IMG/VR virus record: IMGVR_UViG_3300020577_003313 | DNA: 64,000 nucleotides | Reading direction: 5' to 3' (one strand) | Source of the DNA: a virus | Taxonomy: Duplodnaviria; Caudoviricetes | Part shown: positions 2 to 17,120 of the stretch, in pieces | Layout of the letters: each line of letters starts with the position of its first letter | Position numbering within the stretch: the stretch's first letter is position 1 | Translations under genes and position numbers: made by a program | The notes under the pieces: generated by a model | What the model was told of the DNA's origin: nothing | Seen by the model: the letters and a program-made list of their open reading frames with translations, nothing else | Database searches by the model: none

Positions 2-3000
2 ACTCAGTTCGAGAAAGCAACAGGAGTAGGAACTAGCTTTCAGAATAGATACACATTTGCGCAGAGATGGTTGGTCAACCCAGTAAAGAGACTAGCAGGA
101 CTATCTTCTGGATTTGCCCAAGTTAGAAAGATACAAGTACTCAATTCTAACAGAATTGAAGGTATCATTGATGAGTTCGCGGGATCTACAACCCCAGAGA
201 TTGTAAGACAAGGACCCAGAAAGACTATCATAGTTGGTGATCATGTAGATTTCAAGTCCCTTTCTGGATTTGAAAAGATAGCTACTATCTTTGGTCACAG
301 TAACAAACATACTCTAATTAACTCAGGATCTGGTTCTTATTACGATTCTATCCTTACAGGCGGAGTAGAACCTCACCTACGGCCTAAAGATTGGTTTATT
401 CCTAAGCCTCCAGAAGGAGGCTTCAAGATAGAGAGTACTAAGTCAGAGTTTTATACTGCTCCAGAAAGTAAGCTAATTCCTGGAATTACTTCCTTAAGAG
501 ATTTCGCTAGCTACTCTATGTACAGAGTTAGCCACTTGGCTTCTGAAACTCTATTCGGAATCAGCTTTGCTCCTTCTGCATCGTTCTTGGGTAATGCAGC
601 AAGACTTGCTGCTATACCAATGATATATGAAGCAGGTAGACAGTTAGTTAATTACGCAGATTATGGTCTAGAATCTACAATAGGATTCTCTCCTATAAAA
701 GCTGCCGCGACTATCTATACTAAAATAAGAGAAGCTCAGCAGTCAGTTAGATCTAGCTTAGGTATTCAACAAGCGGCTGCTGAACTAGAAAAGAACTTCC
801 CAGGATCTATGGATACGACTGGGTCGTTAATTGCTAGAAGTATTGTTGCTCCTGCTATAGCGTTTGCTTCTTTATCCAAGTTTACGTCAATAGGTAAAGC
901 TGCTCTAGGAGCAGCGGGTGTATTTGGGTTAATAGGAGGATCTGATGTTCAGCAAACTCCTGAAGCTCTTGCTAAAGAATATGCAGGAGATATAAAAGTA
1001 CCAGTAAGAAAAGGTAGATGGTGGAGCATTGGCGGTACGCCATATGAAGGCGGAGATATAGAAAGATTTGACTACAGCTGGTACCACAAGCTAAAGAGCG
1101 ACTATAAGAACAAATCTATTTACGGATCTTCGGATGAGTACTGGAAGTACAACGCTAATGTGTTCGGTATTCCATTACCGACTCCTAGCAATTGGTTTGG
1201 ACTAAGAAACATTCTTAATCCTTACAGGGCCGAGATAATCAATAAAGATTCAAGACCTTACGAGGAGACCGCGCCAGCTCTCAGTGATATACCAATATTT
1301 GGTCCAGCACTAGGAGAAACAATAGGAAGACTAATGAAGCCTTCGGCTTCTAGAGTTCCGGGACCAGTAGCTGAGGTAGGTCTTGTACCAAGAGGTCTTA
1401 CAGCTTCTGATGCTAGATCTCTAGGTATTCCAGAGATGAACATCTCTGAGATAGATTTCTCCCCATCTCTTCTAGACAAAGTAAAGAAGATGGCGGATGT
1501 TGCATCCGAACCTATCGGTGTGTATAAGTTCGTGATGGAATATTTTGGTATACGGCTCGAACCTAAGAAAGAACAACTAGCTACTTCTTCTAATATAGAC
1601 TCAGTAGGGAAAGGTCTCTATGACATGGACCTTGGCGGCGGCCTAGGTCAGACCGAATTCCTAAGAAGATTCATGCTGAGCGATTACCATGATAGCTCGC
1701 AGACAGCTAGAATGGTTAACAGAATCAGAAATAATATGCCAGACTGGGTGCCCGGATCTGGCTCTGTCTTTGAAAAAGACAAAGATTACTACATAGACTA
1801 TGGTACCGGATCTCCGTTTGATAAGCTAACGCAAGGAGAAGCGAGATTACCTGGTAGAGGCTACGAAAGCTTAAATAAACTAGAGTCAGGACAAGAGCGA
1901 GTTTATAGCCCTGTAGACAGATTACTCATTCTATCAGACATAGCTCCATACTCAGAAGCATATAAGTATTACGACAATTTAGTTTCTAAGATGAAACTTG
2001 CCCCTGAGTGGCAAGAAAAAGTTAAACTAGCTAGGGAGTATAAGGAAAAATCTACTAGAATTGATAATAGGTTTCCTAGATATACAGATTCCCTTATTGC
2101 CATTAACGAAAGAATCAAAGACTCAGCAGCATATAAAACTACTAGAGGAATCTACGATACTATAACACATGATGTTCTTAGCGAGATCCCACTGTTTGGA
2201 AGTAAACTGTTCCCATTTAGGGACAGCTATGAACGATACAGAAAAGAGCACATAGAAGGTTCTCAGTTTGCTTCATGGTTTACTCCATGGGAAGACATAC
2301 AAAGACCAGCTCTAACTGATATGGCTTTGTCTAATCCATTAGTCGGAGCCCTGAAGGGAGGAACTATAGGATTCTTGCTAGGAGGACCAATGAGTTGGGC
2401 AAGTCCTCTGTCCATAGGACCTTCTACCTCTATTGTAGGAGGTATGATAGTTGGAGGAGCACTAAGCGCGGGTCGAATTGCTCTTGGAGTCTCAGATAAC
2501 TATGTTCCGGATCATGTTAGAGAAGAATCGAATACTAATATGTACTTAGATTCTCTATCTTACATAAAGAACAGAGCTCTCGAAGAGAGAGCTAATAGCA
2601 TGGGCGTTTCTTCTTCTGAGTTTAGAAAGAATGCTAGAAAGACTTTAGTCGGCGCAAATACTCCAATTATGTTAAGAGCTTCTCTTCCGACTTCTCTAGA
2701 TAAGAAATATTTTGATCAGTTCCTAGAGACTCCAGTCGGTAATAGAGAGCAACTCCTTGCAGGAGTGTCTCCTCATCTAGCTTATGCTCTAAACAAAGCA
2801 TGGGGCATGGGCTACAATAGCCAACAGTCTGCTGATACAGAAGCTGTAGCAAGAGTATCAGATGTAGGTGTTCCATCTTTTGATTCCTTAGCCTGGCATC
2901 CAATGGTAGACAATAGGTCAATGGGACTCAAGCTAGTCACCCACGGACTTAATGGAGTTAGCGATAACTACCACAGATATGGCTTCTATGAAGCCAACGA

Positions 3001-3226
3001 AGCTACCATAAGAACAAGAATGCCAGATCTTTGGAACGAATCGACTACTTTCGTAAGTCCTCCTAACTTTGCTAGCGCAAAGGAATACATACAGAACATT
3101 GGCCAAAATATTGATGGCAGGGTTACTACTTCTGTAACCTACACTCCATACAGAGCCAAATATACTCAGAAGCTGCAAATAGATAGAAGTAAAGATAATC
3201 TGCCGATTATTCAAGGTAGGTACTAG
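2..3226 (+). CDS. Large tape-measure-like / ejected virion protein (5' truncated by window edge)
   Basis: The frame is open from base 2 (TQFEKATGVGTSF...), so the TTG at 71 is probably not the true start. Largely helical, with Gly/Ala-rich hydrophobic segments (VGALKGGTIGFLLGGP; IVGGMIVGGALSAG). Lies upstream of hub, gp25 and J genes. TAG stop overlaps the next GTG start. Confidence 0.5.
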   Translation, partial: TQFEKATGVGTSFQNRYTFAQRWLVNPVKRLAGLSSGFAQVRKIQVLNSNRIEGIIDEFAGSTTPEIVRQGPRKTIIVGDHVDFKSLSGFEKIATIFGHSNKHTLINSGSGSYYDSILTGGVEPHLRPKDWFIPKPPEGGFKIESTKSEFYTAPESKLIPGITSLRDFASYSMYRVSHLASETLFGISFAPSASFLGNAARLAAIPMIYEAGRQLVNYADYGLESTIGFSPIKAAATIYTKIREAQQSVRSSLGIQQAAAELEKNFPGSMDTTGSLIARSIVAPAIAFASLSKFTSIGKAALGAAGVFGLIGGSDVQQTPEALAKEYAGDIKVPVRKGRWWSIGGTPYEGGDIERFDYSWYHKLKSDYKNKSIYGSSDEYWKYNANVFGIPLPTPSNWFGLRNILNPYRAEIINKDSRPYEETAPALSDIPIFGPALGETIGRLMKPSASRVPGPVAEVGLVPRGLTASDARSLGIPEMNISEIDFSPSLLDKVKKMADVASEPIGVYKFVMEYFGIRLEPKKEQLATSSNIDSVGKGLYDMDLGGGLGQTEFLRRFMLSDYHDSSQTARMVNRIRNNMPDWVPGSGSVFEKDKDYYIDYGTGSPFDKLTQGEARLPGRGYESLNKLESGQERVYSPVDRLLILSDIAPYSEAYKYYDNLVSKMKLAPEWQEKVKLAREYKEKSTRIDNRFPRYTDSLIAINERIKDSAAYKTTRGIYDTITHDVLSEIPLFGSKLFPFRDSYERYRKEHIEGSQFASWFTPWEDIQRPALTDMALSNPLVGALKGGTIGFLLGGPMSWASPLSIGPSTSIVGGMIVGGALSAGRIALGVSDNYVPDHVREESNTNMYLDSLSYIKNRALEERANSMGVSSSEFRKNARKTLVGANTPIMLRASLPTSLDKKYFDQFLETPVGNREQLLAGVSPHLAYALNKAWGMGYNSQQSADTEAVARVSDVGVPSFDSLAWHPMVDNRSMGLKLVTHGLNGVSDNYHRYGFYEANEATIRTRMPDLWNESTTFVSPPNFASAKEYIQNIGQNIDGRVTTSVTYTPYRAKYTQKLQIDRSKDNLPIIQGRY

Positions 3227-6200
3227 TGTCAAGCTCTTCAGATAACCCAATTGGTAATATTTTTGACAACGTGATGGGCTTTAGCAAGCCTAAAAACGTT
3301 AGCGAATACCTAGACAGAATGCGGGGTCTATCTGATGATAATACTCCGCTATCTTATCTATTACAGAGAAAAGACAAGTACAATATCTTCGGAAGAGCCA
3401 GAGGTACTGTCTGGCAGAGAACTGGCAGCAAAGCAGATCCTATTACTCCAAACAGTTACCAAGGATCTCCTTTTGAGGTTCTTTCTCCTAATAGATATGC
3501 CTCTCTTCCAGGAGTAAATCCTACAAGAGCTAGAATGTTGCAGAAGTATAACCTGCATCTAGCTCACTCTAGTTCTCTAAAGGAGATGTACTTACTTGGT
3601 ACAGATGGATGGCAGGGTGCTCTTCCAATACAAGAAGGCGGTCTTGTACATACAGGAGGCTCAGTAAGAGGAGCTTATAGGCTAAAGTACACTGATTCTT
3701 TAGGAGAAGAAACATATCACTCTCTATTCTATCAAAAACTAGATGAACTCATAGGTCGAAACTTACCAAGAGGAAAGTTCTTAAGAGAGTTCAGAAAGAT
3801 TAACGAAAGTGTAATTGGTACAGGTGTAAAAGGAAAACTAAAGCTCGGCGCCTTGTTAGGCAGCCCTGTAACAAGAAGAGGTAGTGATATAGGTTTATTT
3901 AACGCTCAGTCTCATGAGCTGAGAATGAGAGTAGTCGATAGACCTGGCGCTTCGGAAAGTGATATAATTTCCAAGTTCAAGCAGTTTAAGCAAGACACAA
4001 GAACTATCAATCTCTTAGTAAAGACTAAGGGCAATGTGATACCTGACTACCTACCGGATTCAAATGCCCTGACGGCATTTGACCAAGCTAGAAGAGGTAT
4101 AGAGTCATTCCATGAATGGCTCCCTTCTATGTACGCAAGGCTTGGAATTTCTGGTATGCATCAGCTTGCAAAAGCTGATTATTTAACTGGTCAGAAAGGT
4201 CTAGTACTACCAAGCAGTATAGGCAAGGAAGTATTTGGAAGCTTTGCTTCTATTAGAGAACAAACTAAAGGTTTGTTCCAGGAATACAATAGAGCATATT
4301 TCACGAAAGGCCAAAGAGAGCATATCTTTGCTACCCAAGGTAGCCCGATAGCGTCATTTATGACTGCTGCCGAAGATAGAAAATATGGTCCTTGGTTAAA
4401 GAGAAAAGCTAAGATAGCTATTGTAGACTTTAAGTCTATGCAGGATGAATTACTTACTGTAGGTGATTCAGGTTTTGCAATGACTTACAAAGGCTCTGTA
4501 AGAGCCGCTTCTCATCAATACATTGGTTCTTTAAGAATAGCTGCGCCAGATCAGCTAAAAATTAGTGCGGTAGAAGATCTACTAGGAGTCTCTAATCCTC
4601 GCGGGATAGTCAAGAGTGCTGTTCCAATTTCCTTTACTAAAAAGGAACTCGAAAGAGCAAGATGGAGTAGACGGTATGCGCAGAAAAATTCTCTGCCTAC
4701 TTTCTATAAGTGGGGCGACCTAACTGAAAAAGAAAGAGCACTTAGAGTTTTAGCGAGATCTAAATCTTCAGGAGTCCTAGATGCTGTAGCTAATCATGGA
4801 GGAAGTGTATTCGCTACTGTAACTCATAAGAGTGGTAAGCTATCCATAGACTTCCTGACTAGTAGATTGCTCAATCCTGGCACGGCAGAAATGTTGGTAG
4901 GCGGACTCCGTATGACCGGAACTACCACTACTGCTGACAGTCCTATACACACTGCTTTAAATACTCTAGCAGATAAGCACGGAGTGGAATTAGTAATATC
5001 CGGATCATCTGCGTCCAAGATGAGAGAGTCCAGTATTATTACCGGGTTCCTCCATGAGATGGAAGAACAAGGTAAACTAGATGAAGCAATAAAGATACTC
5101 GGAGGAAATAAAGGTAATACCACTTACGGAGACATTCCTGTAGTAAAAGATTTTGAATCTGCACACAGAGCCGCCCTACAGTATATCAAAGATTTAGAAA
5201 AGTCTAAGATAAAGAAAAACATAAAGATAGCAGCTAGAATGCGGCGCGGTAAGCAAATTTCTGCTGCCGTGTTTGGATTGCAAGATATTGCTCACTCTGT
5301 AAGTATATTCAATGCCGACATATCTCTAAGAGCAGATGCAACTCTAGATATGAACTCCGTCAATCCTGGAAGAATAACTCCAGGAAAGATGAAGACTATA
5401 GCTCTTGCTGCTAGATTAAGAGGACACAGTAATCCTTATAATGATGTTGTATTTAGAACTCTGGCAAATCACTGGAAGAGTTCTCACTTTGGATATGATC
5501 ACTCGACTATGGATTTCAGACTTGGTTCTGAAAGTCCTATCCTTAAGTGGACAGAGGCGATAAACGGTAGTCCTATCTCTCATAGAGTAGAGGACCTCGG
5601 TAGAAATCTAGTTATTTCTAGACACGGAAATAAAGTCTGGGCTAAGGGTGCAAATGCTAGTTACATGCTAAAGACTCCTAGACGCGAAGCGTTTAGAATG
5701 TCTGCTGATGGCATGAGCTATGACGAGCTGTCTAATACAATTCTAGACAGAAGATTTAGAAACAAGATGGCTTACCTAGATCTAGGAAAAGAGATGAACC
5801 TAGATCTGCTTGGACAAAACAAGTCTATTCGTTATCTGCCAATACCTCTGGAACTGTCTAGAGTAAGTGCGACTGACCATAGAGTCATTATGGATGATAA
5901 GCATCCATTTGCATCTTACATGGATCTTCTAAGAGAGTATTCTGCAAACGGAAGCGATACTCAGAAATTTGCTAAGCTTGCTAGAACAGCTACTGAAGGA
6001 ATGTACAAGTCCATACTTGGTAAAGATGGACTACTAGCTAAGACAAATATAATTCATCTTAAGAATTCTCTACCATTTAGACTAACAGCCCAAAGAGGAA
6101 ACTACTGGAACAAGGGCAATATGTTCTCGGCAGAGAACTTCTATGATATCCAGGTATCTAGAAAGCAGTTTTCTGCTGAAGCTCTTAAGAAGATGGGCTA

Positions 6201-7824
6201 TTCAGAGGAAGACGCCCGCAGACTAATAAAGTCTGCAAAAGTTAGAAAGTCTATGTATGTGATGCTAGGAGCAGATCCTGCTCAGCGTCCAGAACACATA
6301 GGCCAGATATGGAGATTAGTATTTAATGATTCTGATAATGTAGGAAAAGATTTCAGACTAACCGGAGCTACTCACCCAATAGCTCAGAGAATGTTGGAAA
6401 GAGACAACGACATGGATAAGTTGTTTCTGCACTTCATCGGCCACGAAGCTGAAAAAGCAGAAGGCATAGCAGTAAACAGACAGTTTGCCAGTATTATTGA
6501 GCAACAAAAGAAGGCAGTTGCTCCAGTACTTAACTTTGTAAAGAGCGAAATAGAGAAAGATTACGGAAAGTCTTCTTCTGGAAGGACAGCTATACTCAAA
6601 GATATAATGGAAGCCTACACAGGTCAAAAGACCTGGGCGTCTTTGGGATATACAATAACGAGACCAGACGAAAGATTAATTCATACTATCTTAACAGAAG
6701 GCGCGGAAGGTCTCAAAGCAAAAGGAATTTCTCTAGGAACTAAAGCTGGACTTAACGAATTCCATATTCAGCAAATGCGTGCTGCACTAGGAGGAGAAGC
6801 CTATGCTCCTGCTATGGTGCTAAGTCAGTATTTATACCAGGGCGGCGTTACTAAGGGTGGCGTTAAGGGAAGCTTGCTCGATCTTTCTAGAGCACTTATA
6901 GAAACTGCACAGAAAGCTAAGACTCAGGACCTAGATCTAGATGAAGCGTTTAGAACCGGAAAGCAGCACATTCTGGATTTTATTGAGGGTTCCGATAAGA
7001 ACAGACTATGGGCTACTACTGAGTATTTAGTAAATAAGATCAATAGACGTAGCTCCACTCCTCTAGTCCTTCAGGGACTAGCAGAAGGTTCTGCTGAAAT
7101 GGCTAATGCCAGAAAGGCAGTGTTTGACGAAGCTGCCGACCTAATGTCAAAGCTAATATTTGGTAGTGCCGCAATTCACGGGGCTATGGGCAGGGGTGTT
7201 AGCAATCTAACTGCTGTAATGGAAGATAGAGCGCCAACTGAAGGTCCTCTTCATCCTAGATCAGTATGGAATAGATTCATTGCCCCAGTACTTGGCTTTG
7301 GACAAGCTGGAACTCCTCCGCCCTCTAGTGAGGGCGCAGCTACTCAAGTACTAGGAACTGCTACTGGACCTACCGTAACTCCTGCCGAATCGCCCACGTC
7401 CAGATCTTTCAGATCTTCATTCTCTGAAATTGGAGAAAACCTATTAAGTAACTTTAAGAGTATATCTAAGAGCAAGTATCTTTGGCCTTCTGTTGGTGGC
7501 CTAGCAGCCATTGGTGCATATGGCTACATGTCTAGACCTGACCTTAGTTCTTCTGACATGCCGCCTCCAATGGATGTTTCTATGCCTACAGACAGAGGAC
7601 CGGATGTGCCGGATTATTCTAATGTAGCTAGAGTTAATAACTCTAGGCCAATAGCGCCTGCTTCTAGACTTAGAAAGCAATTTAACTATAACCAAGTCTC
7701 TACTAGCAGATTCCCAGGTAGATCTAGTTCAAATGTAATTATAGAAGACAGGACTAGCCCAACTAGTCCTTGGTTAATTAGACAACAAATGCAAAAAGTC
7801 AGCGAAAGCGACTTTGTGAGATAA
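3226..7824 (+). CDS. Giant virion-associated protein with degenerate two-barrel (DPBB) RNA polymerase-like motifs
   Basis: HPIAQRMLERDNDMDKLFLH (nt 6373-6432) aligns without gaps to the beta' motif [20 protein letters not shown]. The upstream VMLGADPAQRPEHI matches the spacing of VLLNRAPTLHRLGI. Hydrophobic segment plus Pro-rich tail at the C-terminus. Confidence 0.55.
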   Translation: MSSSSDNPIGNIFDNVMGFSKPKNVSEYLDRMRGLSDDNTPLSYLLQRKDKYNIFGRARGTVWQRTGSKADPITPNSYQGSPFEVLSPNRYASLPGVNPTRARMLQKYNLHLAHSSSLKEMYLLGTDGWQGALPIQEGGLVHTGGSVRGAYRLKYTDSLGEETYHSLFYQKLDELIGRNLPRGKFLREFRKINESVIGTGVKGKLKLGALLGSPVTRRGSDIGLFNAQSHELRMRVVDRPGASESDIISKFKQFKQDTRTINLLVKTKGNVIPDYLPDSNALTAFDQARRGIESFHEWLPSMYARLGISGMHQLAKADYLTGQKGLVLPSSIGKEVFGSFASIREQTKGLFQEYNRAYFTKGQREHIFATQGSPIASFMTAAEDRKYGPWLKRKAKIAIVDFKSMQDELLTVGDSGFAMTYKGSVRAASHQYIGSLRIAAPDQLKISAVEDLLGVSNPRGIVKSAVPISFTKKELERARWSRRYAQKNSLPTFYKWGDLTEKERALRVLARSKSSGVLDAVANHGGSVFATVTHKSGKLSIDFLTSRLLNPGTAEMLVGGLRMTGTTTTADSPIHTALNTLADKHGVELVISGSSASKMRESSIITGFLHEMEEQGKLDEAIKILGGNKGNTTYGDIPVVKDFESAHRAALQYIKDLEKSKIKKNIKIAARMRRGKQISAAVFGLQDIAHSVSIFNADISLRADATLDMNSVNPGRITPGKMKTIALAARLRGHSNPYNDVVFRTLANHWKSSHFGYDHSTMDFRLGSESPILKWTEAINGSPISHRVEDLGRNLVISRHGNKVWAKGANASYMLKTPRREAFRMSADGMSYDELSNTILDRRFRNKMAYLDLGKEMNLDLLGQNKSIRYLPIPLELSRVSATDHRVIMDDKHPFASYMDLLREYSANGSDTQKFAKLARTATEGMYKSILGKDGLLAKTNIIHLKNSLPFRLTAQRGNYWNKGNMFSAENFYDIQVSRKQFSAEALKKMGYSEEDARRLIKSAKVRKSMYVMLGADPAQRPEHIGQIWRLVFNDSDNVGKDFRLTGATHPIAQRMLERDNDMDKLFLHFIGHEAEKAEGIAVNRQFASIIEQQKKAVAPVLNFVKSEIEKDYGKSSSGRTAILKDIMEAYTGQKTWASLGYTITRPDERLIHTILTEGAEGLKAKGISLGTKAGLNEFHIQQMRAALGGEAYAPAMVLSQYLYQGGVTKGGVKGSLLDLSRALIETAQKAKTQDLDLDEAFRTGKQHILDFIEGSDKNRLWATTEYLVNKINRRSSTPLVLQGLAEGSAEMANARKAVFDEAADLMSKLIFGSAAIHGAMGRGVSNLTAVMEDRAPTEGPLHPRSVWNRFIAPVLGFGQAGTPPPSSEGAATQVLGTATGPTVTPAESPTSRSFRSSFSEIGENLLSNFKSISKSKYLWPSVGGLAAIGAYGYMSRPDLSSSDMPPPMDVSMPTDRGPDVPDYSNVARVNNSRPIAPASRLRKQFNYNQVSTSRFPGRSSSNVIIEDRTSPTSPWLIRQQMQKVSESDFVR

Positions 7825-7828
7825 TAAT

Positions 7829-8383
7829 ATGACAAGTGTAACAGTTGTAATTGGAAATCCCATCTCTACATATAGCTATGTGAACTACTATAGCGTTACA
7901 GCAATAAGATCCATAGTACTTGTTGTACAGAGACCTGTTGGTAGTTCTTATGTCAGAAAGCAACATAGCGTTACACTAGGTTACGGTAAGGTCATAACCC
8001 CGTTTAGAATAAGTACTTCTTCTAGAATACCTACTCTACAGAATGTACTTCATACATTTGGAGTATTCGTTCCCTTACCTCAGATTACAACTCTCAATAA
8101 CATAAGAGAGTCGTCCGCTGTAAACACTTCTCAAGTACTTCCTACTCCAAGAAATAACGATCCAGAGTCTCACATTGCAGTTGCAGAATTGATCTCTTCT
8201 GGAGGAAGCTTAGACGGGCTACCAGAAGGTAGCCGACAAATTATTGCCAAAACTGTTACGCCTAACGTAAAATCTTCGAAAGAAGTATCTGTTGTTATTT
8301 CAACACTAGCAAATAATTACGGCGCTAAGTCTAATCCTAGACAGATCACCACATCATATTCTAATAGAATCAGAAGATCATGA
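7829..8383 (+). CDS. Hypothetical virion/tail-region protein
   Basis: 184-aa ORF packed between two giant genes; ATGA overlap with the next gene; no recognisable motif. Confidence 0.6.
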   Translation: MTSVTVVIGNPISTYSYVNYYSVTAIRSIVLVVQRPVGSSYVRKQHSVTLGYGKVITPFRISTSSRIPTLQNVLHTFGVFVPLPQITTLNNIRESSAVNTSQVLPTPRNNDPESHIAVAELISSGGSLDGLPEGSRQIIAKTVTPNVKSSKEVSVVISTLANNYGAKSNPRQITTSYSNRIRRS

Positions 8384-11300
8384 CGTCAACTAGCCTACAG
8401 ATTGGTCCATATACTTTTCAACATTCTGTACAAAGTATTGTTCTCCAAGAACAGAAAGCTCTGAATGCGGCGGAAACTACCAGATCTAGTAAGAACCTTA
8501 TTATTGATACTGGAAAAACTTCCAGTAAGGCAGTTATTCAGTTTCTGTTTTCTGGTATTAACGAGATAAATACTGACGCTAGAAGATTAATAGCATTATT
8601 TAGATGCTGTCCAGTGATCTCATGTAAAAATGAGATGATCTCTAACTCTTGGAAGCCTCTGACAAATCAAACAAAGAAAGATACTGATATCTTACCAAAA
8701 GATACAGCTGCTGTAGATAGAACAGAATATAACCAATTTGTTCCTGTTGGGCTAGAAGAAATATCAATAAGTTCGGTTCCAGATTTGCCATTTTGTATTT
8801 ACCTTACTCTTACTCTATCTAAGATAGATGTTTCAAACGCTACGTCTGGAGATATTCTGTATCAGGACGAGAACCCCGCGAATAGATGGACAGATCCAGC
8901 AAAAGCTTTCTGGCTAAAGAAATGGGTAGACACTATTCTAGAAGATCAAAAAATTCCTATCTTAATCAGAGAGGACTTCGATAATATATCCTTTGAATGG
9001 TTTGGCAAAGATATCTTTGGGGATAGGGTCACGTCAAATAATATCCCTGGTAGAATTAACCTAGAACAAGACAGCCCATATTTAAAAATACAAGCAGAGA
9101 CCTGTACCATAAGAAATAACTTTGTGTACAATACCCTTATCGGTAAGGGCTCTCCTTCTCCTCAGCATATGGGTTCTACCAGTAGGTATTACTCATTAGA
9201 TATCCTATCTAATGGTCAGACTGACTCTGGAGAGTCAGAATACAAGATGCTTCAAACTTTTAAAGAAGCATCCGACGAGATGGCGAGATCTAAAAATAGA
9301 GAGAACAGAATCATTGGATGGGCAGTCACAAGTCCTATTTCAAAACTTTTAGCAGTATCGTCTTATCCAATAAGATACCGGTCAGGTATCTTTGTTCCTA
9401 TAACTGTAAGCCAAGAGACTTCATCGGAGCCATTTGTAAAGACCATATCTATTGATATGATCGAAAACAATGTTGATTTCTTTCAGCAAAATGAAATCCT
9501 CCTTACTGAAGGAGGAACTGATTATGATGATCTACTAGCTTACTACAAGAGACTTACTGAAAAAGAATATCAGTTCAGAAAGAACAAGCAAACGCCGGGC
9601 TATGTAGATTCAGCATTGAGCGGAACATCAATACAGAGTCAAGAAGAATATGACGCGTGGTCTCTATTCTGGCCAATCTCTTCCCCAGGATATACTTGGG
9701 TAAAGAACACAGATATCTTCGGTGTTCTCTCTAAAGAAACTCTAAAGGCAGTGTTCTTAGATCCGGAGTACGATACTAAGGAAAGACTAGCAATAGCGTT
9801 AAACCAAGCTATTTTAGTTGTAGGAGAGACTCTGTCTGGTTCAAGACAAGTACCTATTTGGACAAAGACAAAAATAAATCTAGACCAGATAAGATCTCTA
9901 GTAGCAGGTTCTGATAGTGATGAGAAAGATCTAGCATCTATATTCATAGCTATTAAAGATCTAGTGTCTACTAAGATGATACTCGGAGCAGATGAAACTG
10001 CTATAAACTTTCTATCCCAGAAAATATTCCTGTCTTTCTTAGGAGATTTTGACGGAGTGTTGGATGTCAACACAGAATCCGGATCTGTGGTTCAGATCCT
10101 AGCAGGATCTGTTTATCAATTTCATCCAGATTTCTTAAGTGCTTTATTCAGAGTACTAGTAGAGAGAAGAAAGCCTCCTCAGTTTAAGATACCAGCATAC
10201 AGCATTGATGCTGTAAACACTAGCTTCTTTAAGCTAATTGCAGCATTTGCAAAAGACAACAATAAATTACCGATCTACAAAGAGCCAGAACCGGGTACTT
10301 CTAATGACAACGCAAAAGCATTAAGTGTTGTCAAAGCAAATAATAGATGCCTTTACCCTGATCTGCTATTGCCGACATATGGCGAGCTCTACGAGGATAA
10401 GTGGACTCTGTTCGCTCCTACCTATAATGATTTTGGTATTATCAATAGAAAGCCTAGCAGTGATTCTGTTATTGCAGACAACCCTCAAAATGAAATAGCA
10501 GTATCTATTGACGACTATGTTTCCCCAGCTGCTTGGTTCTTTAATAAGAAATTCAAAGAAGGATTGGATAAGCTTCTATCCTTTGTAGATAAGGATGCCA
10601 GTGCTGCCGCTGCTGTGGGCCATAACCTAGTAATATCCATACCTTTTGATACTGATGAGATCGAAGAACTAGAAGAACTTCTGCAAAAGAAAGAAGAAGA
10701 TAACCCGACCTACAGAGCAGCTTCACTACCCACAATCATAGAAAGATCTGAATCAATAATTAGGAATGCTATCCAGCGCCAACTGGATAATCCTAATCAA
10801 AAGTTCTACGATAGCTTAAAACAGCTAGAAATAATTGATGCTAACGAAGCTCTAAGACAGCAGTATCTTTCTAGCTCCTCCAAAACTGTATCAATTCTAC
10901 AGTCTAACGCAGGTAGTATTACAGTAAAAAGAAAGTTAACAGCTCCTGGTGTCGCTGGAGCTATTGTCAGAGTCTTAAAAGAGTACAAGCTTTTATCCAC
11001 TAGTGATAGACTGCCCAGACTCGATGCCTACGAAGAGTATAGATCCGCCGACAAGACATCAGAATTCAAATTCATTAGAGGTTTAGACGAGAACACTCAA
11101 CAGAGTGTGAAGTCTATGATTGACCAGCTTCCTGATACATATGAAAGTATGGTCAAACTATTCCCTGCTTGTAAGGTGTACTTAGTAGATAAAAGAGGAA
11201 CTGATATCGTCGGAGACGATAGTTTCTTTACAGTTAATCCAATTGTGTCTATAGATATTACACTAGACAAAGAAGAGGCAGATCTGGCAGTCATTAGGGT

Positions 11301-14300
11301 AGCTGATCCTATGTATATTCTGCAAAGAGATTACTTCCCTACTGGCGGCATCAATACAATAAAAGGTCAAGACGGAGCTACTTTAAGTAGAACAGTACTA
11401 GGTTCTTTAAAGGGTAATAATTTTGATCACTATCTAAAAAGATTTAAGCTAGCCCAAGGTAGAAGAATACAAATAAAGATGGGCTATGATTCTAATCCCA
11501 AAAATCTGAAAACAGTTTTCACTGGCAGAATAGCTGAAATAGAACCCGGAGATGTAGTTACAATTGTTGCCCAAGGATGGAAGGCCGAGCTCATGTCTAG
11601 ACAAGTAGCATTTGCTAACTCAAATGCTAAATCTTGGGGAGCTAAAGATCTTGCTGTACAAGCTATCACAGCAGCGAATCCAGACGGATTCGGAGACTTC
11701 TATGCTCAAAGAGATACCAATTTTATCTTAAGAAATCTACCTAGTGCAGATGCAGAAGAGCTAGCTAGACAAGTTCTAAGAGTACAAGAAGGTTCCATAA
11801 CAGAACACGGTGAAAGAGGATTCTTATCTTCTGCAAAGAACTCAGTAGTATCGTTCTTTGGTGGTACAGAGTATGATAAAGAAAATCCAGGTCTAGACAC
11901 AAGACTGAAGAATATCTGGTATCCAGAAATACCAGAGGTTAGTAACATTCTAGGATTGAGGTCTTTCTTTCAGATACTTCCTTCTCAGGTAAATGATAGC
12001 TGGGTTGTGCCTTTACAGCCAGCATGGGAAGTCCTTAAAGAGGCAGCCAGACATACTTGGAACTATATAGTTCAAGTTGTTCCATATGATGGAGAAGCTA
12101 CTATATTCTTCGGTCATCCGGATCAGCCTTACTACTACACGAAAGGTAACAAAATCTCTAGAACCTATTATGACAAATTCCTAGAAGGATTTGTCAAGTC
12201 CGGAGAAGATGTAAATAACTTAGTTTCTGGATTCTTCTCTAGTCCTTTCTATGGAGAAGGATATGTTCCTAATATAGATAACTTACAAAAAATTAATAAT
12301 GCCATCACTAACTCTTATGACAATGCTGAACTAGGATTCGCATCTGATAAGAAGATAAACAGTAAGTACGATTTGGGATCCTTCATAGAAAATCCAGAAG
12401 TCTTGGATGACTTTTATCAAGAACTGACTAAGTCTAGAAGATCGGCAGTTACATTTAGAGAAGCAAACAGATCCTATAAGATGCTAGAGCATCTGCTCAA
12501 TAGTAATCTATTTGGTAATTTATTTGTAAAGCTCGCGCTTAAATCTAAAGCTCCCTTAGCTGCTTATCAAGATTTAAAATCTACATACCTAAAGTCAAGA
12601 ACAGATACGATAATTGCCAAGCTATTCTTTGAAATGCCAGAGATAGAAGCGCAGGCTTATTTCTGGAGAAACATAGGCAGAGATATGGAAACACTGATGT
12701 CTCCTAGTGTAAATTTAGGAGATCTACAAGACATATCAAATGGAATGTCTGTTGACCTTTCTATAAAAGAAGTTATCATAAATGAGATCAACTCCATATA
12801 CAAGTCTGTAAGTAGTGCGTGGTATTATGACGTCGGTCGCACTCCTACTGTAGTTGTTAAAGATATTGACAATCTTAGAAACTTAGTTGTCTCAAAAGCA
12901 ACAAATCTTTACTCTAGATACTACACTAATGAACTATATGCGGCCAGCATTAAGTCTCTAAATGAAAAAATTGCCGAATGGGGCAATAACAAGATTACAG
13001 GAGAATCCACTAAGCAACTACAGTCTGTGGTCAGCTCAATAAGAGAATCCATAAAGAAGCTTAATCCTAAATTCTCTTCGATAAAGGAAGATATCCAATC
13101 TGAAACTCTGGTAGCAAAGCTAAGAATCTTTGTCTACTACCTAGCGGAATACCTAAAAAATGATTCTCAAGGAAGACTAGAGGCTGACAAGATATCAACA
13201 CTAGCTATATCTTTACCTCCCACAATGCAGGTATTTAGAGTGTTCCATAATATTGATAGCGATCACGATATTGTTTCAAATAATATCGTAGCTAGTACAA
13301 GAGATATGTGGAATACTGTTGTCATTGAGTATCCAGAAAGAGATGCGGCAACAGACAAGGTAGACGATGAAACAGCTCTATACAATAAGACTGAGTTCTA
13401 TAGCGGCATCAAGTGGGTATACTGGCCTAAGAATGAAGTCTCCGGTGTAGTAGGACTACAGTTTCATCCAGGTCTAACACTTGCAAATAAAAAGATTAGA
13501 GTATTTACTGAGATAAACTGCCAGGGCGGAGAGCTAGCTGCAAAGCTAGCTTGTAATAGATTGGCAGAAGGTCTTAGAAAGATGTACCGAGGAACCCTTA
13601 CCATAAAGGGCAGACACATAAAGCCGTATGACAGAATCATTTTAAACGATGATTACACGAATATGGTCGGCCCAGTAGAGGTTGAGTCAGTAGTCCATCA
13701 CTGGAATCTAGACACCGGATGGGTATCAAATATACAGCCGGAGGCTGTGTGTGATTCTAATGCGGGCGCAGCTGTAGTACAGACTGCTGCTATGGAAGCT
13801 CTATTTGATAAGGTATTCAGAACTACAGATTTCCTCACTGACCTAGTAACCTATTGTATAATTGTAGCCACTTTAGGTGGCGGCACTCCAATAGTTGGAG
13901 GTCAGTTTGCTGTTAAGAAAGGTCTGACCGGAGCTATAAAGAAATGGTGGGAAAAGGGAACTAAGGATTATATCTATGATAGGCTAATTGCTGGAAAAGA
14001 TAACATCCTTAAACTTAAGGACATAATAGCAGGACAATACAAAGATCCGCTGAATGCTCTCAGAACTATAATTAGAACATTCATCCAGGGACCAGGTGGT
14101 AAAATATTTGCTAGCCAGGTTATATCTGGAGCAGTAGATACACTAACTGATACAGCATTTAAGCTTACAGTATGTACATCTTTCGTTATGAATGCTCAGA
14201 AAGCTGAGCAATTACCAGTACTCCTTTCTCCTCTTTTATTTAATGGAATGCCGTTCCTTGCAGGATTGGAAACTGAAGATCCGATCTGGGCTGTATTCTT

Positions 14301-14397
14301 TAATGGAACTTTCTGGTCGTTAAAGGATATGCAATTAGGAGCGGCGGAATTCGTTAACGAAATAGGATTCGGAGAACTTCTTAAGGAAATCAAATGA
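8380..14397 (+). CDS. Baseplate hub protein (gpD/gp27-like), large multidomain fusion
   Basis: Hub-type motifs GRRIQIKMGY..LKTVFTGRIAEIEPGDVVTIVAQG and MYRGTLTIKG..IKPYDRIIL..VEVESVVHHW...GWVS; located just upstream of gp25 and J genes. Confidence 0.7.
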   Translation: MTSTSLQIGPYTFQHSVQSIVLQEQKALNAAETTRSSKNLIIDTGKTSSKAVIQFLFSGINEINTDARRLIALFRCCPVISCKNEMISNSWKPLTNQTKKDTDILPKDTAAVDRTEYNQFVPVGLEEISISSVPDLPFCIYLTLTLSKIDVSNATSGDILYQDENPANRWTDPAKAFWLKKWVDTILEDQKIPILIREDFDNISFEWFGKDIFGDRVTSNNIPGRINLEQDSPYLKIQAETCTIRNNFVYNTLIGKGSPSPQHMGSTSRYYSLDILSNGQTDSGESEYKMLQTFKEASDEMARSKNRENRIIGWAVTSPISKLLAVSSYPIRYRSGIFVPITVSQETSSEPFVKTISIDMIENNVDFFQQNEILLTEGGTDYDDLLAYYKRLTEKEYQFRKNKQTPGYVDSALSGTSIQSQEEYDAWSLFWPISSPGYTWVKNTDIFGVLSKETLKAVFLDPEYDTKERLAIALNQAILVVGETLSGSRQVPIWTKTKINLDQIRSLVAGSDSDEKDLASIFIAIKDLVSTKMILGADETAINFLSQKIFLSFLGDFDGVLDVNTESGSVVQILAGSVYQFHPDFLSALFRVLVERRKPPQFKIPAYSIDAVNTSFFKLIAAFAKDNNKLPIYKEPEPGTSNDNAKALSVVKANNRCLYPDLLLPTYGELYEDKWTLFAPTYNDFGIINRKPSSDSVIADNPQNEIAVSIDDYVSPAAWFFNKKFKEGLDKLLSFVDKDASAAAAVGHNLVISIPFDTDEIEELEELLQKKEEDNPTYRAASLPTIIERSESIIRNAIQRQLDNPNQKFYDSLKQLEIIDANEALRQQYLSSSSKTVSILQSNAGSITVKRKLTAPGVAGAIVRVLKEYKLLSTSDRLPRLDAYEEYRSADKTSEFKFIRGLDENTQQSVKSMIDQLPDTYESMVKLFPACKVYLVDKRGTDIVGDDSFFTVNPIVSIDITLDKEEADLAVIRVADPMYILQRDYFPTGGINTIKGQDGATLSRTVLGSLKGNNFDHYLKRFKLAQGRRIQIKMGYDSNPKNLKTVFTGRIAEIEPGDVVTIVAQGWKAELMSRQVAFANSNAKSWGAKDLAVQAITAANPDGFGDFYAQRDTNFILRNLPSADAEELARQVLRVQEGSITEHGERGFLSSAKNSVVSFFGGTEYDKENPGLDTRLKNIWYPEIPEVSNILGLRSFFQILPSQVNDSWVVPLQPAWEVLKEAARHTWNYIVQVVPYDGEATIFFGHPDQPYYYTKGNKISRTYYDKFLEGFVKSGEDVNNLVSGFFSSPFYGEGYVPNIDNLQKINNAITNSYDNAELGFASDKKINSKYDLGSFIENPEVLDDFYQELTKSRRSAVTFREANRSYKMLEHLLNSNLFGNLFVKLALKSKAPLAAYQDLKSTYLKSRTDTIIAKLFFEMPEIEAQAYFWRNIGRDMETLMSPSVNLGDLQDISNGMSVDLSIKEVIINEINSIYKSVSSAWYYDVGRTPTVVVKDIDNLRNLVVSKATNLYSRYYTNELYAASIKSLNEKIAEWGNNKITGESTKQLQSVVSSIRESIKKLNPKFSSIKEDIQSETLVAKLRIFVYYLAEYLKNDSQGRLEADKISTLAISLPPTMQVFRVFHNIDSDHDIVSNNIVASTRDMWNTVVIEYPERDAATDKVDDETALYNKTEFYSGIKWVYWPKNEVSGVVGLQFHPGLTLANKKIRVFTEINCQGGELAAKLACNRLAEGLRKMYRGTLTIKGRHIKPYDRIILNDDYTNMVGPVEVESVVHHWNLDTGWVSNIQPEAVCDSNAGAAVVQTAAMEALFDKVFRTTDFLTDLVTYCIIVATLGGGTPIVGGQFAVKKGLTGAIKKWWEKGTKDYIYDRLIAGKDNILKLKDIIAGQYKDPLNALRTIIRTFIQGPGGKIFASQVISGAVDTLTDTAFKLTVCTSFVMNAQKAEQLPVLLSPLLFNGMPFLAGLETEDPIWAVFFNGTFWSLKDMQLGAAEFVNEIGFGELLKEIK

Positions 14398-14864: not shown

Positions 14865-15528
14865 CAGTTCGCAAAATAATCCAAACTCAATTGCAGGCTC
14901 AGCAGATGGAGCAGCAACACAAGACGAGCTAGTTTCTGGTGTAGTAGATATCAATCTAACTCCTAGCAATAAAGATCTACAGACCCTTGCCGCAGATACT
15001 CTGCGGGCACTAGAATGGTCTACCACTTCTAAGACTAATGTTTCGTCCTCTCCTAAGTATCCTGGCAGTCCTTATAACTCTTACATAGGAGGAGGATCAT
15101 TTAGTATGGTTCCCCTGCTTGGTAGGTTTGTGTTTTCTTCTTCTGAAAATGAAGAAAGCCCTCCTGCTTTAAAAGTTGATAAGGCGTCTTCCACTTTTTC
15201 CTCAACAAGTACTTCCACAACACTAGGTAGTAAAAATATTGATACCCTTGATGGGTATCAGGTGACTCAAACAGATCGCCCCAGTACTCCATTCAGTCCC
15301 CAGAAGACCTGGGTGAAGGACATATTTAACACCCTAGCAGATAGTAAGTTAGTGCAGCTAGCTTTCTTAGAAGCAATTAATGTATTACTTCTCTCTGCAC
15401 TTAGCAATAAAGGGACAAAATCAGAGCAAATAACTAAGACAACAGGTCCAGATATCGGTACAACGATAGTTGACAATCAAGAAATTGAAGATAGAATCTT
15501 GGCCGAGGTATACAGTAGAAGACAATGA
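14857..15528 (+). CDS. Hypothetical baseplate-region protein (possible spike-associated)
   Basis: The ORF track starts at 14833, but the in-frame ATG at 14857 has GAAGGA upstream and overlaps the previous stop. Ser/Thr-rich middle; sits between hub and gp25. Confidence 0.5.
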   Translation: MTDSSQNNPNSIAGSADGAATQDELVSGVVDINLTPSNKDLQTLAADTLRALEWSTTSKTNVSSSPKYPGSPYNSYIGGGSFSMVPLLGRFVFSSSENEESPPALKVDKASSTFSSTSTSTTLGSKNIDTLDGYQVTQTDRPSTPFSPQKTWVKDIFNTLADSKLVQLAFLEAINVLLLSALSNKGTKSEQITKTTGPDIGTTIVDNQEIEDRILAEVYSRRQ

Positions 15529-15962
15529 CTAGCTATACAGAACAAGACATTGCTCTAACCTTTGACGGAGATATAATTCTAGAGTCGAATGGTGACATAA
15601 AGGTGGCCAATTCTTTGGACACCTACAAGAGCGCGGCTAACTTTGTCCTAAGAACTGACTATGGAGATTATGCGGCCGATAACAATGTCGGCTGTAACCT
15701 AGGTTCTTTCATTGGTGCTACCAATACACCAGATGTACACGCTGAAATGGAATACAACATAACCAGTACTCTACAGAACGAAATTTTTGGTCAGGGTTCT
15801 GTTGTAGCTACTGTAGTTCCATTTGATATAGATGAGGCCCTGGCCATAATAGAAATCGCAGGAATTTTCTTGATAGACGGTGAGTATACCTATGTTCAGG
15901 GCGATCGTATGAATTATGCTTTCCCGTATATTGACGGAAACCCAACACCACTAGTAGTTTAA
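15525..15962 (+). CDS. Baseplate wedge gp25-like / sheath initiator protein
   Basis: DIALTFDGDIILESNGDI..LRTDYGDY..VGCNLGSFIG pattern, 145 aa, directly before Baseplate-J. Confidence 0.85.
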   Translation: MTSYTEQDIALTFDGDIILESNGDIKVANSLDTYKSAANFVLRTDYGDYAADNNVGCNLGSFIGATNTPDVHAEMEYNITSTLQNEIFGQGSVVATVVPFDIDEALAIIEIAGIFLIDGEYTYVQGDRMNYAFPYIDGNPTPLVV

Positions 15963-15965
15963 CAT

Positions 15966-17120
15966 ATGCCGTTAAAAAAGAAAAGCCTATCTGAGATGAC
16001 CAAGGATTCTCTGCGGTATCTAGCAGAGAATACAAATATTACATATTTTGCCCAGGGGTCGGTATCTAAAGCTCTAATAGAAGCAACAAACCTAGAGATA
16101 TCTAGATTACAAGATTTTGTATCTACTACTTTTGATAACGGATTCCTCTCTACAGCAAGCGGTATCTACCTAGATCTATTCGGAGAAATGCTGAATACTC
16201 CTAGAATCAGAGACAGGGCCGCCTCGTCCTCTGCTGAGGACGGGGCTGTGAGGTTCTATGTAGATAGTGGTACTCTAGGATCAAAGCTTCCTAGCCTTAT
16301 TGTAGCTAACAAGGGCACGATTCCTTCGGGTACCAGAGTATCCACTAAAGACGGATCTATTACTTACTATGTAAGTAATGATGTAACATTCCCAATTAAC
16401 GCTAGAAGCGTTTTCGTTCCTGTAAGTGTTTCTAGTTCTGGCTCTTCATACAATGTTGGAGCCAATCAGCTAACAACACATAGTCTTTCTTCCTCTGATA
16501 TTAAGGTTACAAACGACCTTGCTATCACATCCGGAACAGATGTAGAGTCTGATGCTGAGTACAGATATCGCCTGTCAAAGGCGATGACAACCAAGTTTGG
16601 AGCTAATAGAACGGCTATACAAGTAGCTGCTTCTTCTCAACCTGGAGTATCAAGAGCAGATGTACTTCCTTTTACAAGAGGATCCGGCACCTTCGATGTG
16701 TTGCTAATCCCCCAAGGAAACAGACTTACCGTAACTGCTAAGGAAGATACCAGAAGAGCTATAGAGCAGGTAACTGCTTTTGGCGTTAGCCCTAGAATTC
16801 TAGAACCAGTCTATGTACCATTTAGAATTATAGTTCAATTAATTTACCAGGAAGGAACCGCAGAGGGTCAAAAAATTACTATAAGAACTGGCGCAGAATC
16901 GGCCATTCTTAGATACTTCGCATCTATCCCAATAGGTGGAGAAGTTGTAATGAATCAAATCAGAGCAGCAGTACTAACCAGCAATACTGCTATCAAAGAT
17001 ATGAGGATAGTAGAGCTCTGCATAGATAATCACCAGAGAACAATAAACAATGTTCAGCTAGAAAAAGATGAACTCCTAGTTCCAGATTCAGAGTCCGACG
17101 ACAGCGTAAAGGTAGTATAA
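15966..17120 (+). CDS. Baseplate J-like wedge protein
   Basis: ASGIYLDLFGEML..R, GTIPSGTRV, GTDVESDAEYRYRL and PGVSRA..RGSGTFDV are typical Baseplate_J motifs, indicating a contractile tail. Confidence 0.9.
   Translation: MPLKKKSLSEMTKDSLRYLAENTNITYFAQGSVSKALIEATNLEISRLQDFVSTTFDNGFLSTASGIYLDLFGEMLNTPRIRDRAASSSAEDGAVRFYVDSGTLGSKLPSLIVANKGTIPSGTRVSTKDGSITYYVSNDVTFPINARSVFVPVSVSSSGSSYNVGANQLTTHSLSSSDIKVTNDLAITSGTDVESDAEYRYRLSKAMTTKFGANRTAIQVAASSQPGVSRADVLPFTRGSGTFDVLLIPQGNRLTVTAKEDTRRAIEQVTAFGVSPRILEPVYVPFRIIVQLIYQEGTAEGQKITIRTGAESAILRYFASIPIGGEVVMNQIRAAVLTSNTAIKDMRIVELCIDNHQRTINNVQLEKDELLVPDSESDDSVKVV

Follow-up and report, generated by a model that had tools for sequence, protein, structure and literature searches.

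A divergent family of predicted single-chain two-barrel RNA polymerases in the tail module of large contractile-tailed phages

To our knowledge, few lineages of single-chain RNA polymerases (RNAPs) with two double-psi beta-barrels (DPBBs) have been characterised experimentally: YonO, gp66 of crAss-like phages, two enzymes of phage P23-45, and the RNA interference (RNAi) polymerases. Among these, only P23-45 gp96 is known to us to be tied to a tail tape measure. The gene described here lies in a 64,000-nucleotide (nt) window (the whole stretch of DNA that was analysed) of a ~176-kb phage genome (IMG/VR record IMGVR_UViG_3300020577_003313), at positions 3226–7824 of the plus strand. The product of this open reading frame (ORF), a protein of 1532 amino acids (aa), had been proposed in an initial annotation to be either a very divergent injected virion RNAP or an inactivated RNAP scaffold reused as an ejection protein.

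The closest functional model is gp96 of the Thermus siphovirus P23-45 (PDB 8H2M/8H2N; Chaban et al. 2024, PMC10770324), which is delivered through the tail for pre-early transcription and which, like the predicted product of ORF 3226–7824, is a single-chain two-barrel RNAP encoded at the tape-measure position. It matches the predicted structure of the ORF 3226–7824 protein (Z 8.9, 311 residues aligned, root-mean-square deviation (rmsd) 5.7) with the Asp triad in register, but no sequence similarity was found, and the canonical DFDGD of gp96 contrasts with [AV]DP and ERDxD[R/M]D in the family of ORF 3226–7824. Furthermore, gp96 is fused to ~3800 residues of a true tape measure, which includes peptidase and membrane domains, whereas ORF 3226–7824 is a separate 1532-aa gene of a myovirus with only a ~190-aa C-terminal module after the core; its product has no peptidase, no strong transmembrane helix, and no long tape-measure fusion of the gp96 type.

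The virion-packaged single-chain two-barrel RNAP gp66 of phi14:2, a crAss-like phage (PDB 6VR4), is barely detected by motif or profile searches. Like the ORF 3226–7824 protein, it has a residue other than Gly at the fourth position of its motif (DFDID), and the triads are in register. Since crAss gp66 is an active enzyme, which requires all three Asp residues, a non-Gly residue at this position is not disqualifying. The crAss protein differs in its length (2180 aa), in ~1600 residues of unique domains, and in a cleft-blocking domain; it shares no sequence similarity with the ORF 3226–7824 protein, and its gene adjoins the virion-protein genes g065 and g067 rather than being located in a contractile-tail tape-measure slot. 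QDE-1, the best structural match of all, is a cellular RNAi enzyme and not a virion component; it shares 12–15% identity with the ORF 3226–7824 protein and, unlike the latter, has kept both R962-x-P964 and DYDGD.

Predicted fold and catalytic centre

The AlphaFold2 model of aa 281–1340, based on an alignment of 43 sequences (the query and 42 homologs), has a predicted local distance difference test score (pLDDT) of 87.1 and a predicted template modelling score (pTM) of 0.89. When this model was compared with the PDB by Foldseek, all 50 of the 50 matches listed were beta'/Rpb1 chains, with probabilities of 0.44–0.99 (mostly ≥0.9) and E-values from 2e-3 to 1e-2; the global template modelling (TM) scores were low, as is expected with multi-domain chains. 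The VIA-align search of 48,161 representative chains returned QDE-1 (Z 11.5, 397 residues aligned), maize RDR2 (Z 10.0) and P74-26 gp62 (Z 9.5) at the top, along with the beta-like subunits of the AR9 non-virion RNAP (Z 9.2, model residues 13–434) and of phiKZ (Z 8.0), the largest subunits of Pol IV, vaccinia and Pol II (Z 9.1, model residues ~485–1060), P23-45 gp96, crAss gp66 (Z 7.0, 458 residues aligned) and PolD (Z 5.4). The beta-like half of the model was also aligned to Pol I A135 and bacterial beta. In the ESM Atlas, the best cluster was a single-chain Rpb2_6 and Rpb1_2 fusion (TM 0.44/0.46 over 573 residues); among the matches listed, the named clusters were all RNAP families, and one unnamed cluster had no Pfam family.

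Lone DPBBs (designed proteins and N-domains of AAA-ATPases) were aligned to model residues 667–791, which correspond to aa 947–1071 (for 7dww_A, Z 7.1–7.6, rmsd 2.5, 86 residues aligned), and expansin-type barrels were aligned to model residues ~81–425, or roughly aa 390–705. Therefore, based on the partial-chain and lone-barrel alignments, the chain runs from a beta-like barrel through a connector and a beta'-like barrel to a helical region, which is the barrel order reported for single-subunit members of the polymerase class (PMC10770324). With two DPBBs in the model and RNAPs returned by the structural searches, the fold suspected in the initial annotation was recovered, and the "beta-like traces" it had pointed to (aa 397–417 and 586–599) fall in the beta-like half, in the range of its barrel (DPBB-B). 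Judging from the predicted model, it is almost certain that the ORF 3226–7824 protein has a two-barrel RNAP fold. A tape measure would be long, extended and mostly helical, whereas aa 281–1340 form a compact mixed alpha/beta core, and no tape measure protein family in Pfam or PHROGs was matched by the ORF 3226–7824 protein. The following features were delineated (window positions, strand, description):

3226–7824, +, single-chain two-barrel RNA-polymerase-like protein (predicted), whole ORF, 1532 aa
3226–4101, +, N-terminal region, aa 1–292; weaker conservation, outside the AlphaFold model
4102–5367, +, beta-like half, aa 293–714, predicted to hold DPBB-B (~aa 390–705, with insertions)
5368–6063, +, inter-barrel connector, aa 715–946; aligns to beta'/Rpb1-like chains in their clamp-side, N-terminal part
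6064–6438, +, DPBB-A, predicted beta'-like catalytic barrel, aa 947–1071; isolated DPBB structures align to exactly this range
6271–6297, +, psi-loop motif ADPAQRPEH, putative counterpart of beta' N-R-A-P-T-L-H
6403–6417, +, DNDMD, predicted metal-binding Asp triad D1060/D1062/D1064; family form E-R-D-x-D-[R]-D
6472–7245, +, C-terminal part of the core, entirely helical, aa 1083–1340
6646–6663, +, G1141, Y1142 and R1146 of the candidate bridge helix (aa 1124–1165)
6838–6858, +, candidate trigger-loop-like motif QGGVxKG, aa 1205–1211
7246–7821, +, C-terminal module, aa 1341–1532

The strings quoted in the initial annotation are present in the translation: ADPAQRPEH at aa 1016–1024, THPIAQRM at aa 1049–1056, and DNDMD at aa 1060–1064, just where it had been placed. 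As 0.23 DxDxD motifs are expected by chance in this particular protein, a single occurrence is not significant, but its conservation across the family is. In the model, D1060, D1062 and D1064 share one loop, between a helix (aa 1051–1056) and the last barrel strand (aa 1065–1069), and all three are present in 43 of the 43 sequences. For an examination of the register, a fragment model (aa 640–1072, pLDDT 85.8) ending 8 residues past the third Asp was used, and the ends of its structural alignments were read:

QDE-1: alignment end 1019, Asp motif 1007–1011 (PMC2919709)
P23-45 gp96: alignment end 791, Asp motif 779–783 (PMC10770324)
crAss gp66: alignment end 1373, Asp motif 1361–1365 (bioRxiv 10.1101/2020.03.07.982082)

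In all three proteins the alignment ends at the third Asp + 8, as in the fragment itself (residue 425 of 433). The match of the fragment to QDE-1 has a Z of 10.3 and an rmsd of 3.2 Å over 144 residues, and the beta'/Rpb1 chains align to it from residue ~141, that is, from aa 780. The gapless alignment with the beta' catalytic barrel claimed in the initial annotation was recovered in part. When the family profile was aligned by hhalign to the whole 1407-aa E. coli beta', the sole match (aa 1046–1073 with beta' 446–473) was gapless and placed the HP pair on H450-P451 and the triad on D460/D462/D464, but it is weak (E 0.033), and the final His of that motif, H1069, is kept in only 8 of the 43 sequences and is hence not a conserved residue.

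The spacing of the putative catalytic elements is close to that in QDE-1. P1018 precedes the first Asp by 42 residues (43 in QDE-1), and the triad is separated from R1146 by 82 residues, compared with the 80 residues between D1011 and the bridge-helix residue R1091 of QDE-1 (PMC9508822). In the model, barrel A is followed by two long helices, aa 1083–1112 and aa 1124–1165, and whole-chain alignments extend to aa ~1332; because of the matching Arg-to-triad spacing, aa 1124–1165 is likely the bridge helix. Of the eight residues common to all two-barrel polymerases, as listed by Ruprich-Robert and Thuriaux (PMC2919709), four are present in the ORF 3226–7824 protein, namely the Pro and the three Asp residues. 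Two substitutions reported in the initial annotation are correct: the position of the invariant Gly (1063) is occupied by Met (Arg in 31/43 sequences), and that of the RxP Arg (1016) by Ala (A in 25/43, V in 15/43, I in 2/43, F in 1/43). R1021, which is located three residues past the Pro on the same loop, plausibly replaces the missing Arg.

In barrel B, the catalytic set consists of D837, K979 and K987 in Rpb2 and of D709, R738 and K743 in QDE-1 (PMC2919709). The conserved candidates in the ORF 3226–7824 protein are E555, R561/R562 (R562 in 42/42), E595, K598 (39/43), R702 (42/42), D704, D708, R/K716 and K721, the last two being encoded just 3' of the beta-like half (nt 5371–5388). R716 and K721 were tried as equivalents of QDE-1 R738 and K743 (spacing of 5) and rejected, given that the fragment aligns only from aa 705, which corresponds to QDE-1 784. 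A likeness of "GxxRxDFM" to the beta-subunit motif "GGxRFGEME" was left as unsupported.

A family of metagenomic homologs

An exhaustive HMMER scan, which covered 1.84 billion cluster representatives, yielded 42 relatives, all of them metagenomic, 827–1938 aa in length and 21–35% identical to the query. The 43 family members are sequence clusters at 50% identity, found on contigs of up to 242 kb, and the mean column identity of their alignment is 22%. Of the names given to the homologs by their sources, one is functional ("DNA polymerase III epsilon subunit-like"), and all the rest read "hypothetical protein".

Despite this divergence, P1018, Q1020, H1024, R1059, D1060, D1062, D1064, G1141, Y1142, Q1205, V1208 and K1210 are invariant (43/43). 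Also conserved in at least 90% of the family are D1017, R1021 (42/43), E1023, E1058 and R1146 (42/43) in the catalytic half, and R562, K598, R702, D704, D708, N710 and K721 on the beta-like side, where G416, T420 and G423 are near-invariant as well. The N-terminal residues M1, N7 and P8 are kept in homologs. The family can be recognised by the signature [AV]-D-P-x-Q-R-x-E-H, followed after ~33 residues by [HN]-P-x6-E-R-D-x-D-x-D. The pattern used for screening in the P23-45 study was [RK]xP-x(20-100)-DxDxD (PMC10770324); it needs [RK]xP where the family has [AV]DP, and so the warning that a motif search would miss this protein was justified.

Beyond the active site, Pfam RNase_T, a DEDD 3'-5' exonuclease domain, was found above the gathering score in seven of the 43 members (E 1.6e-9 to 1.6e-17). 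In six of them (P0007, P0013, P0023, P0027, P0030 and P0031) it is inserted at one site, after the equivalent of aa 183 (nt ~3774), and in P0045 it is located near the N-terminus; the ORF 3226–7824 protein has no trace of it. In a quick tree, the six same-site carriers are distributed over at least three distinct branches, so that there was repeated gain or loss of the domain. These fusions are independent evidence that the family acts on nucleic acids, and they are also compatible with readings beyond plain mRNA synthesis.

Sequence searches with the ORF 3226–7824 protein gave no match to any Pfam family at E-values up to 1, including PF00623, PF00562 and PF05183, nor to PHROGs at a lenient threshold. 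The lack of a Pfam RNAP match is a failure of the family models and not evidence against the fold. No match among the PDB sequences was obtained either by phmmer with the protein or by hmmsearch with the family profile, and a 71-column profile built on the catalytic barrel retrieved, by hmmsearch, spurious ankyrin repeats alone. By tblastn, neither the whole protein nor aa 680–1220 matched any of 50,697 phage records at E-values up to 10. The query itself was the sole match in a word-index homolog search, and the IMG/VR scan, which the family alignment is too divergent to seed, yielded no relative. The family profile had no hhalign match to residues 327–1124 of P23-45 gp96 or to E. coli rpoB, and hmmsearch with filters off gave no useful match to either protein. 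No description of the family was found in full-text literature searches.

One member cluster, P0010 (NCBI MHA2065914.1), comes from a contig of 6.9 kb that had been assigned to a "Candidatus Thorarchaeota" metagenome-assembled genome. This is probably a phage contig that was mis-binned into an archaeal genome; an archaeal host is also possible.

Position in the tail module

ORF 3226–7824 begins with GTG, which overlaps the stop codon of the preceding gene by one base (taGTG), and a ribosome-binding-like site, AAGGTAGG, is located ~6 nt 5' of this start. The genes run in the order sheath (PHROG 16991), tube, tube paralog, three small genes, a gene for a 1401-aa protein and the polymerase-like gene, followed by a 184-aa gene, a 2005-aa hub-like protein, a gp25-like protein and Baseplate_J proteins. 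The same order, with the stop/start overlap, was found in four further loci with homologs from different family branches, i.e., in five loci in total. The neighbours within the window are the following:

2–3226, +, gp145-like upstream gene, cut by the window edge (1401 aa in the full contig)
7829–8383, +, small gene (184 aa) that separates the polymerase-like gene from the hub; no family match
8380–14397, +, baseplate hub-like protein, 2005 aa (phrog_20474, E 1e-32), in the slot of 0305phi8-36 gp147 and ME3_37
15525–17120, +, gp25-like baseplate protein and Baseplate_J wedge protein

The presence of gp25-like and Baseplate_J genes identifies this region as a myovirus baseplate module. By sheath, the nearest cultured phages are Moorella phage MTATph1 and Bacillus phage 0305phi8-36. 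BLASTP homologs of 0305phi8-36 gp140–gp142, gp144 and gp145 are, respectively, the tube protein, the tube paralog, the gp142 homolog, one chaperone and the 1401-aa protein, the latter being also a homolog of Moorella phage CDS0026 and of ME3_35 of Acinetobacter phage ME3; the BLASTP match of the second chaperone to gp143 was not significant. ORF 3226–7824 sits in the slot of gp146, the tape-measure position. According to the 0305phi8-36 record, gp145 and gp146 are virion proteins detected by mass spectrometry, and gp146 is a "hypothetical tape measure protein". This protein is longer (2537 aa) and has no similarity to the polymerase core, but a weak, position-matched likeness was seen at the C-terminus (hhalign E 0.096), where both proteins have an I-x-D-x-RS..N..WL motif a few residues before the end, as well as a hydrophobic segment rich in Gly and Ala. 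In the ORF 3226–7824 protein, the C-terminal module consists of a Pro-rich low-complexity stretch, the Gly/Ala-rich segment at aa 1418–1435 (nt 7477–7530), and, at aa 1505–1532, a tail conserved as I-x-D-[RK]-[TS]-S..NPWL..QM..SDF. The segment had been described as membrane-like; it is only weakly hydrophobic (Kyte-Doolittle mean <1.5 over 19 residues), but a Gly/Ala-rich hydrophobic stretch is indeed kept there in homologs.

The family profile gave no useful hhalign match to 0305phi8-36 gp145 or Moorella CDS0026/0027, and hmmsearch with filters off likewise produced none useful with gp145, gp146 or these Moorella proteins. A hidden DxDxD was also sought in 0305phi8-36 gp145/gp146 and in the Moorella 26/27 slot proteins, and none has one. 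An RNAP similar to YonO is encoded elsewhere in the 0305phi8-36 genome (PMC7824862).

A cultured counterpart is found in phage ME3. When the model was compared by Foldseek with predicted structures of viral proteins, four matches had E <1e-3. One (E 1.3e-9 over 991 columns) is named "minor tail protein" and comes from an uncultured siphovirus; the other three are an unnamed protein, a protein of Microcystis phage MaMV-DC, and ME3 A0A172Q021 in BFVD (E 5.5e-5 over 830 columns). Polymerases of giant viruses, jumbo phages and crAss-like phages rank next in this list. From the segment length (2 × 802 for 1603 aa), we infer that A0A172Q021 is ME3_36 (AND75197.1, vB_AbaM_ME3 gp36, "hypothetical protein", 1603 aa, L009:33172-37983). 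The tail module of ME3 is syntenic, with ME3_36 lying between ME3_35 and ME3_37, whose annotations are gp145 homolog and hub, respectively. Thus, ME3 gp36 has the same slot, a similar length and a matching predicted structure, but unlike ORF 3226–7824 it keeps the RxP Arg: it carries R-E-P, 40 residues, and D-H-D-Q-D, i.e., the canonical RxP...DxDxD arrangement. No sequence similarity between ME3_36 and the family was detected by hhalign or hmmsearch, and a tblastn search gave ME3_36 no relative in other cultured phages. The hosts of the family are large myoviruses of the 0305phi8-36-like and ME3-like types, with the gene in the presumed tape-measure slot.

The small gene before the hub encodes 184 to 219 aa in four loci, and a 937-aa gene takes its place in the fifth (L004:14544-17357). 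Tail tube proteins of this phage group (L001:2505-3191 and L001:3233-4069; gp140 and gp141 of 0305phi8-36) match PHROG 9206, which is labelled "major head protein"; in RefSeq, gp140 and gp141 bear product names like this label along with notes reading "tail tube", which looks like a propagated mislabel. In the 242-kb relative, the tube paralog (L010:1761-3848, 695 aa) matches Intein_splicing and LAGLIDADG_3 and thus contains an intein.

Functional interpretation and significance

The reading that fits best, to which we assign a probability of roughly 0.6, is that ORF 3226–7824 represents a family of single-chain two-barrel RNAPs of the tail module that is new and very divergent and whose members are probably delivered with the virion for early transcription. 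On this reading, the three Asp residues would bind catalytic Mg ions and the protein would polymerise ribonucleotides; it would be made late, together with the tail proteins, and incorporated into the tail or virion via its C-terminal hydrophobic/tail module. At infection, it would be ejected before the DNA or together with it, and the first phage genes would be transcribed independently of the host RNAP, as with P23-45 gp96 and crAss gp66. Catalytic activity as such appears probable from the model and the conservation. The strictly conserved triad with its surroundings, and the exonuclease found in seven homologs, favour an active enzyme over the inactivated scaffold.

Several observations weigh against this interpretation. 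The universal RxP Arg (Rpb1 R446, QDE-1 R962) is replaced by Ala/Val at position 1016, and for the one acidic and two basic residues expected of a catalytic barrel B, candidates but no assignment can be given. All of the structural evidence depends on a predicted model, and no sequence method gave a significant link to any RNAP, the only trace being the beta' match mentioned above. Finally, by a rough estimate from general tail tube dimensions, the folded core of ~120 kDa is too wide for the lumen of the tail tube; therefore, storage and exit would need unfolding or another location.

Some of these points would suit a structural tail or ejection protein, a substitute for the tape measure in which the two-barrel fold was kept but polymerisation was lost, and in which the Asp cluster either binds a metal solely in the service of folding or docks to the hub or membrane. 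Such a protein would be at home in the gp146 slot and would explain the weakly shared C-terminal module, the lost Arg, the replaced Gly and the elusive residues of barrel B. However, an inactive scaffold is not expected to keep D1017, P1018, Q1020, R1021, E1023, H1024, E1058, R1059 and the triad, or, likewise, the (near-)invariant G1141, Y1142, R1146, Q1205, V1208 and K1210, at 21–35% identity. The lack of Gly in its motif does not prevent the crAss enzyme from being active, the repeated fusion to a DEDD exonuclease indicates nucleic-acid chemistry, and the core is globular (pTM 0.89) rather than an extended helical ruler, which makes this explanation unlikely.

An active two-barrel polymerase could also have a function other than making early mRNA, such as QDE-1-like RNA synthesis on RNA or single-stranded DNA templates, replication priming, or PolD-like DNA synthesis with the exonuclease as a proofreader. 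QDE-1 and RDR2, the best structural matches, are RNA-dependent enzymes; the spacing of the Pro loop, the triad and the bridge-helix Arg agrees with that in QDE-1, crAss gp66 favours single-stranded templates in vitro, fusion to a DnaQ-type exonuclease is a typical feature of DNA polymerases, and PolD is among the matches. On the other hand, diverse phage single-subunit RNAPs are grouped with the eukaryotic RNAi polymerases in one clade of a published dendrogram, and two of the phage members, YonO and crAss gp66, have been characterised as DNA-dependent RNAPs. PolD scored far below the RNAPs, most family members, including the ORF 3226–7824 protein, have no exonuclease, and the tail module with its late genes is an odd location for a replication enzyme, so that such a role seems rather unlikely. 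As we infer presence in the virion from gene position only, the polymerase might instead be encoded in the late structural operon by chance and act in the producing cell, e.g., on late genes, in a phage whose sigma-like gene (58572–59294) shows that it manipulates transcription in other ways as well. This appears very unlikely, considering that the position and the translational coupling between two tail proteins are kept in 5/5 loci, that the conserved C-terminal module resembles that of the slot-equivalent virion protein gp146, and that an enzyme expressed late would be unable to start its own expression programme.

If ORF 3226–7824 does represent a virion-delivered polymerase, a broader scenario can be put forward tentatively: a clade of large or jumbo contractile-tailed phages, comprising the 43 sequence clusters and cultured phage ME3, may have replaced the tape-measure-slot protein by, or merged it with, a self-contained, tail-loaded RNAP that is injected first. 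Single-chain two-barrel virion RNAPs, one of them linked to a tape measure, were known already. What is new is a family that has no sequence link to known polymerases and a centre lacking a supposedly universal Arg, in a contractile-tail setting where it occupies the tape-measure slot without a tape measure. Some of its members have an exonuclease domain, and the proposal can be tested on a cultured one, that of ME3, a phage grown on A. baumannii DSM 30007. It would be a second, independent case of a tail-module polymerase, this time in contractile-tailed phages, and, if the reading is true, tail-carried polymerases recur in siphoviruses and myoviruses and are not a peculiarity of P23-45. In that case, ME3, whose phage group is reported as encoding no RNAP, would bring its own transcription enzyme into the cell, and some lineages would possess the first two-barrel RNAP with a built-in exonuclease. 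Such variants pose the question of proofreading or nucleic-acid processing in this polymerase class, of which YonO is without transcript cleavage. A gene slot that is routinely annotated as "tape measure", "minor tail protein" or "hypothetical" would thus be reassigned, and because the family lacks the RxP Arg that serves as a search filter, sequence-motif screens under-count phage polymerases.

Two further observations concern the remainder of the window. The baseplate genes are followed by an unbroken same-strand gene run (19227–52774, +) with ten giant genes of 818–1633 aa; these have no mutual BLASTP similarity, and the five that were scanned have few or weak family matches. They presumably encode proteins of the fibres or of the baseplate periphery, comparable to the curly-fibre region of 0305phi8-36. 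In addition, an ORF of 240 aa (58572–59294, +) weakly matches sigma factors of RNA polymerase in PHROGs (E ~6e-4), which suggests that part of the phage programme uses the host RNAP.

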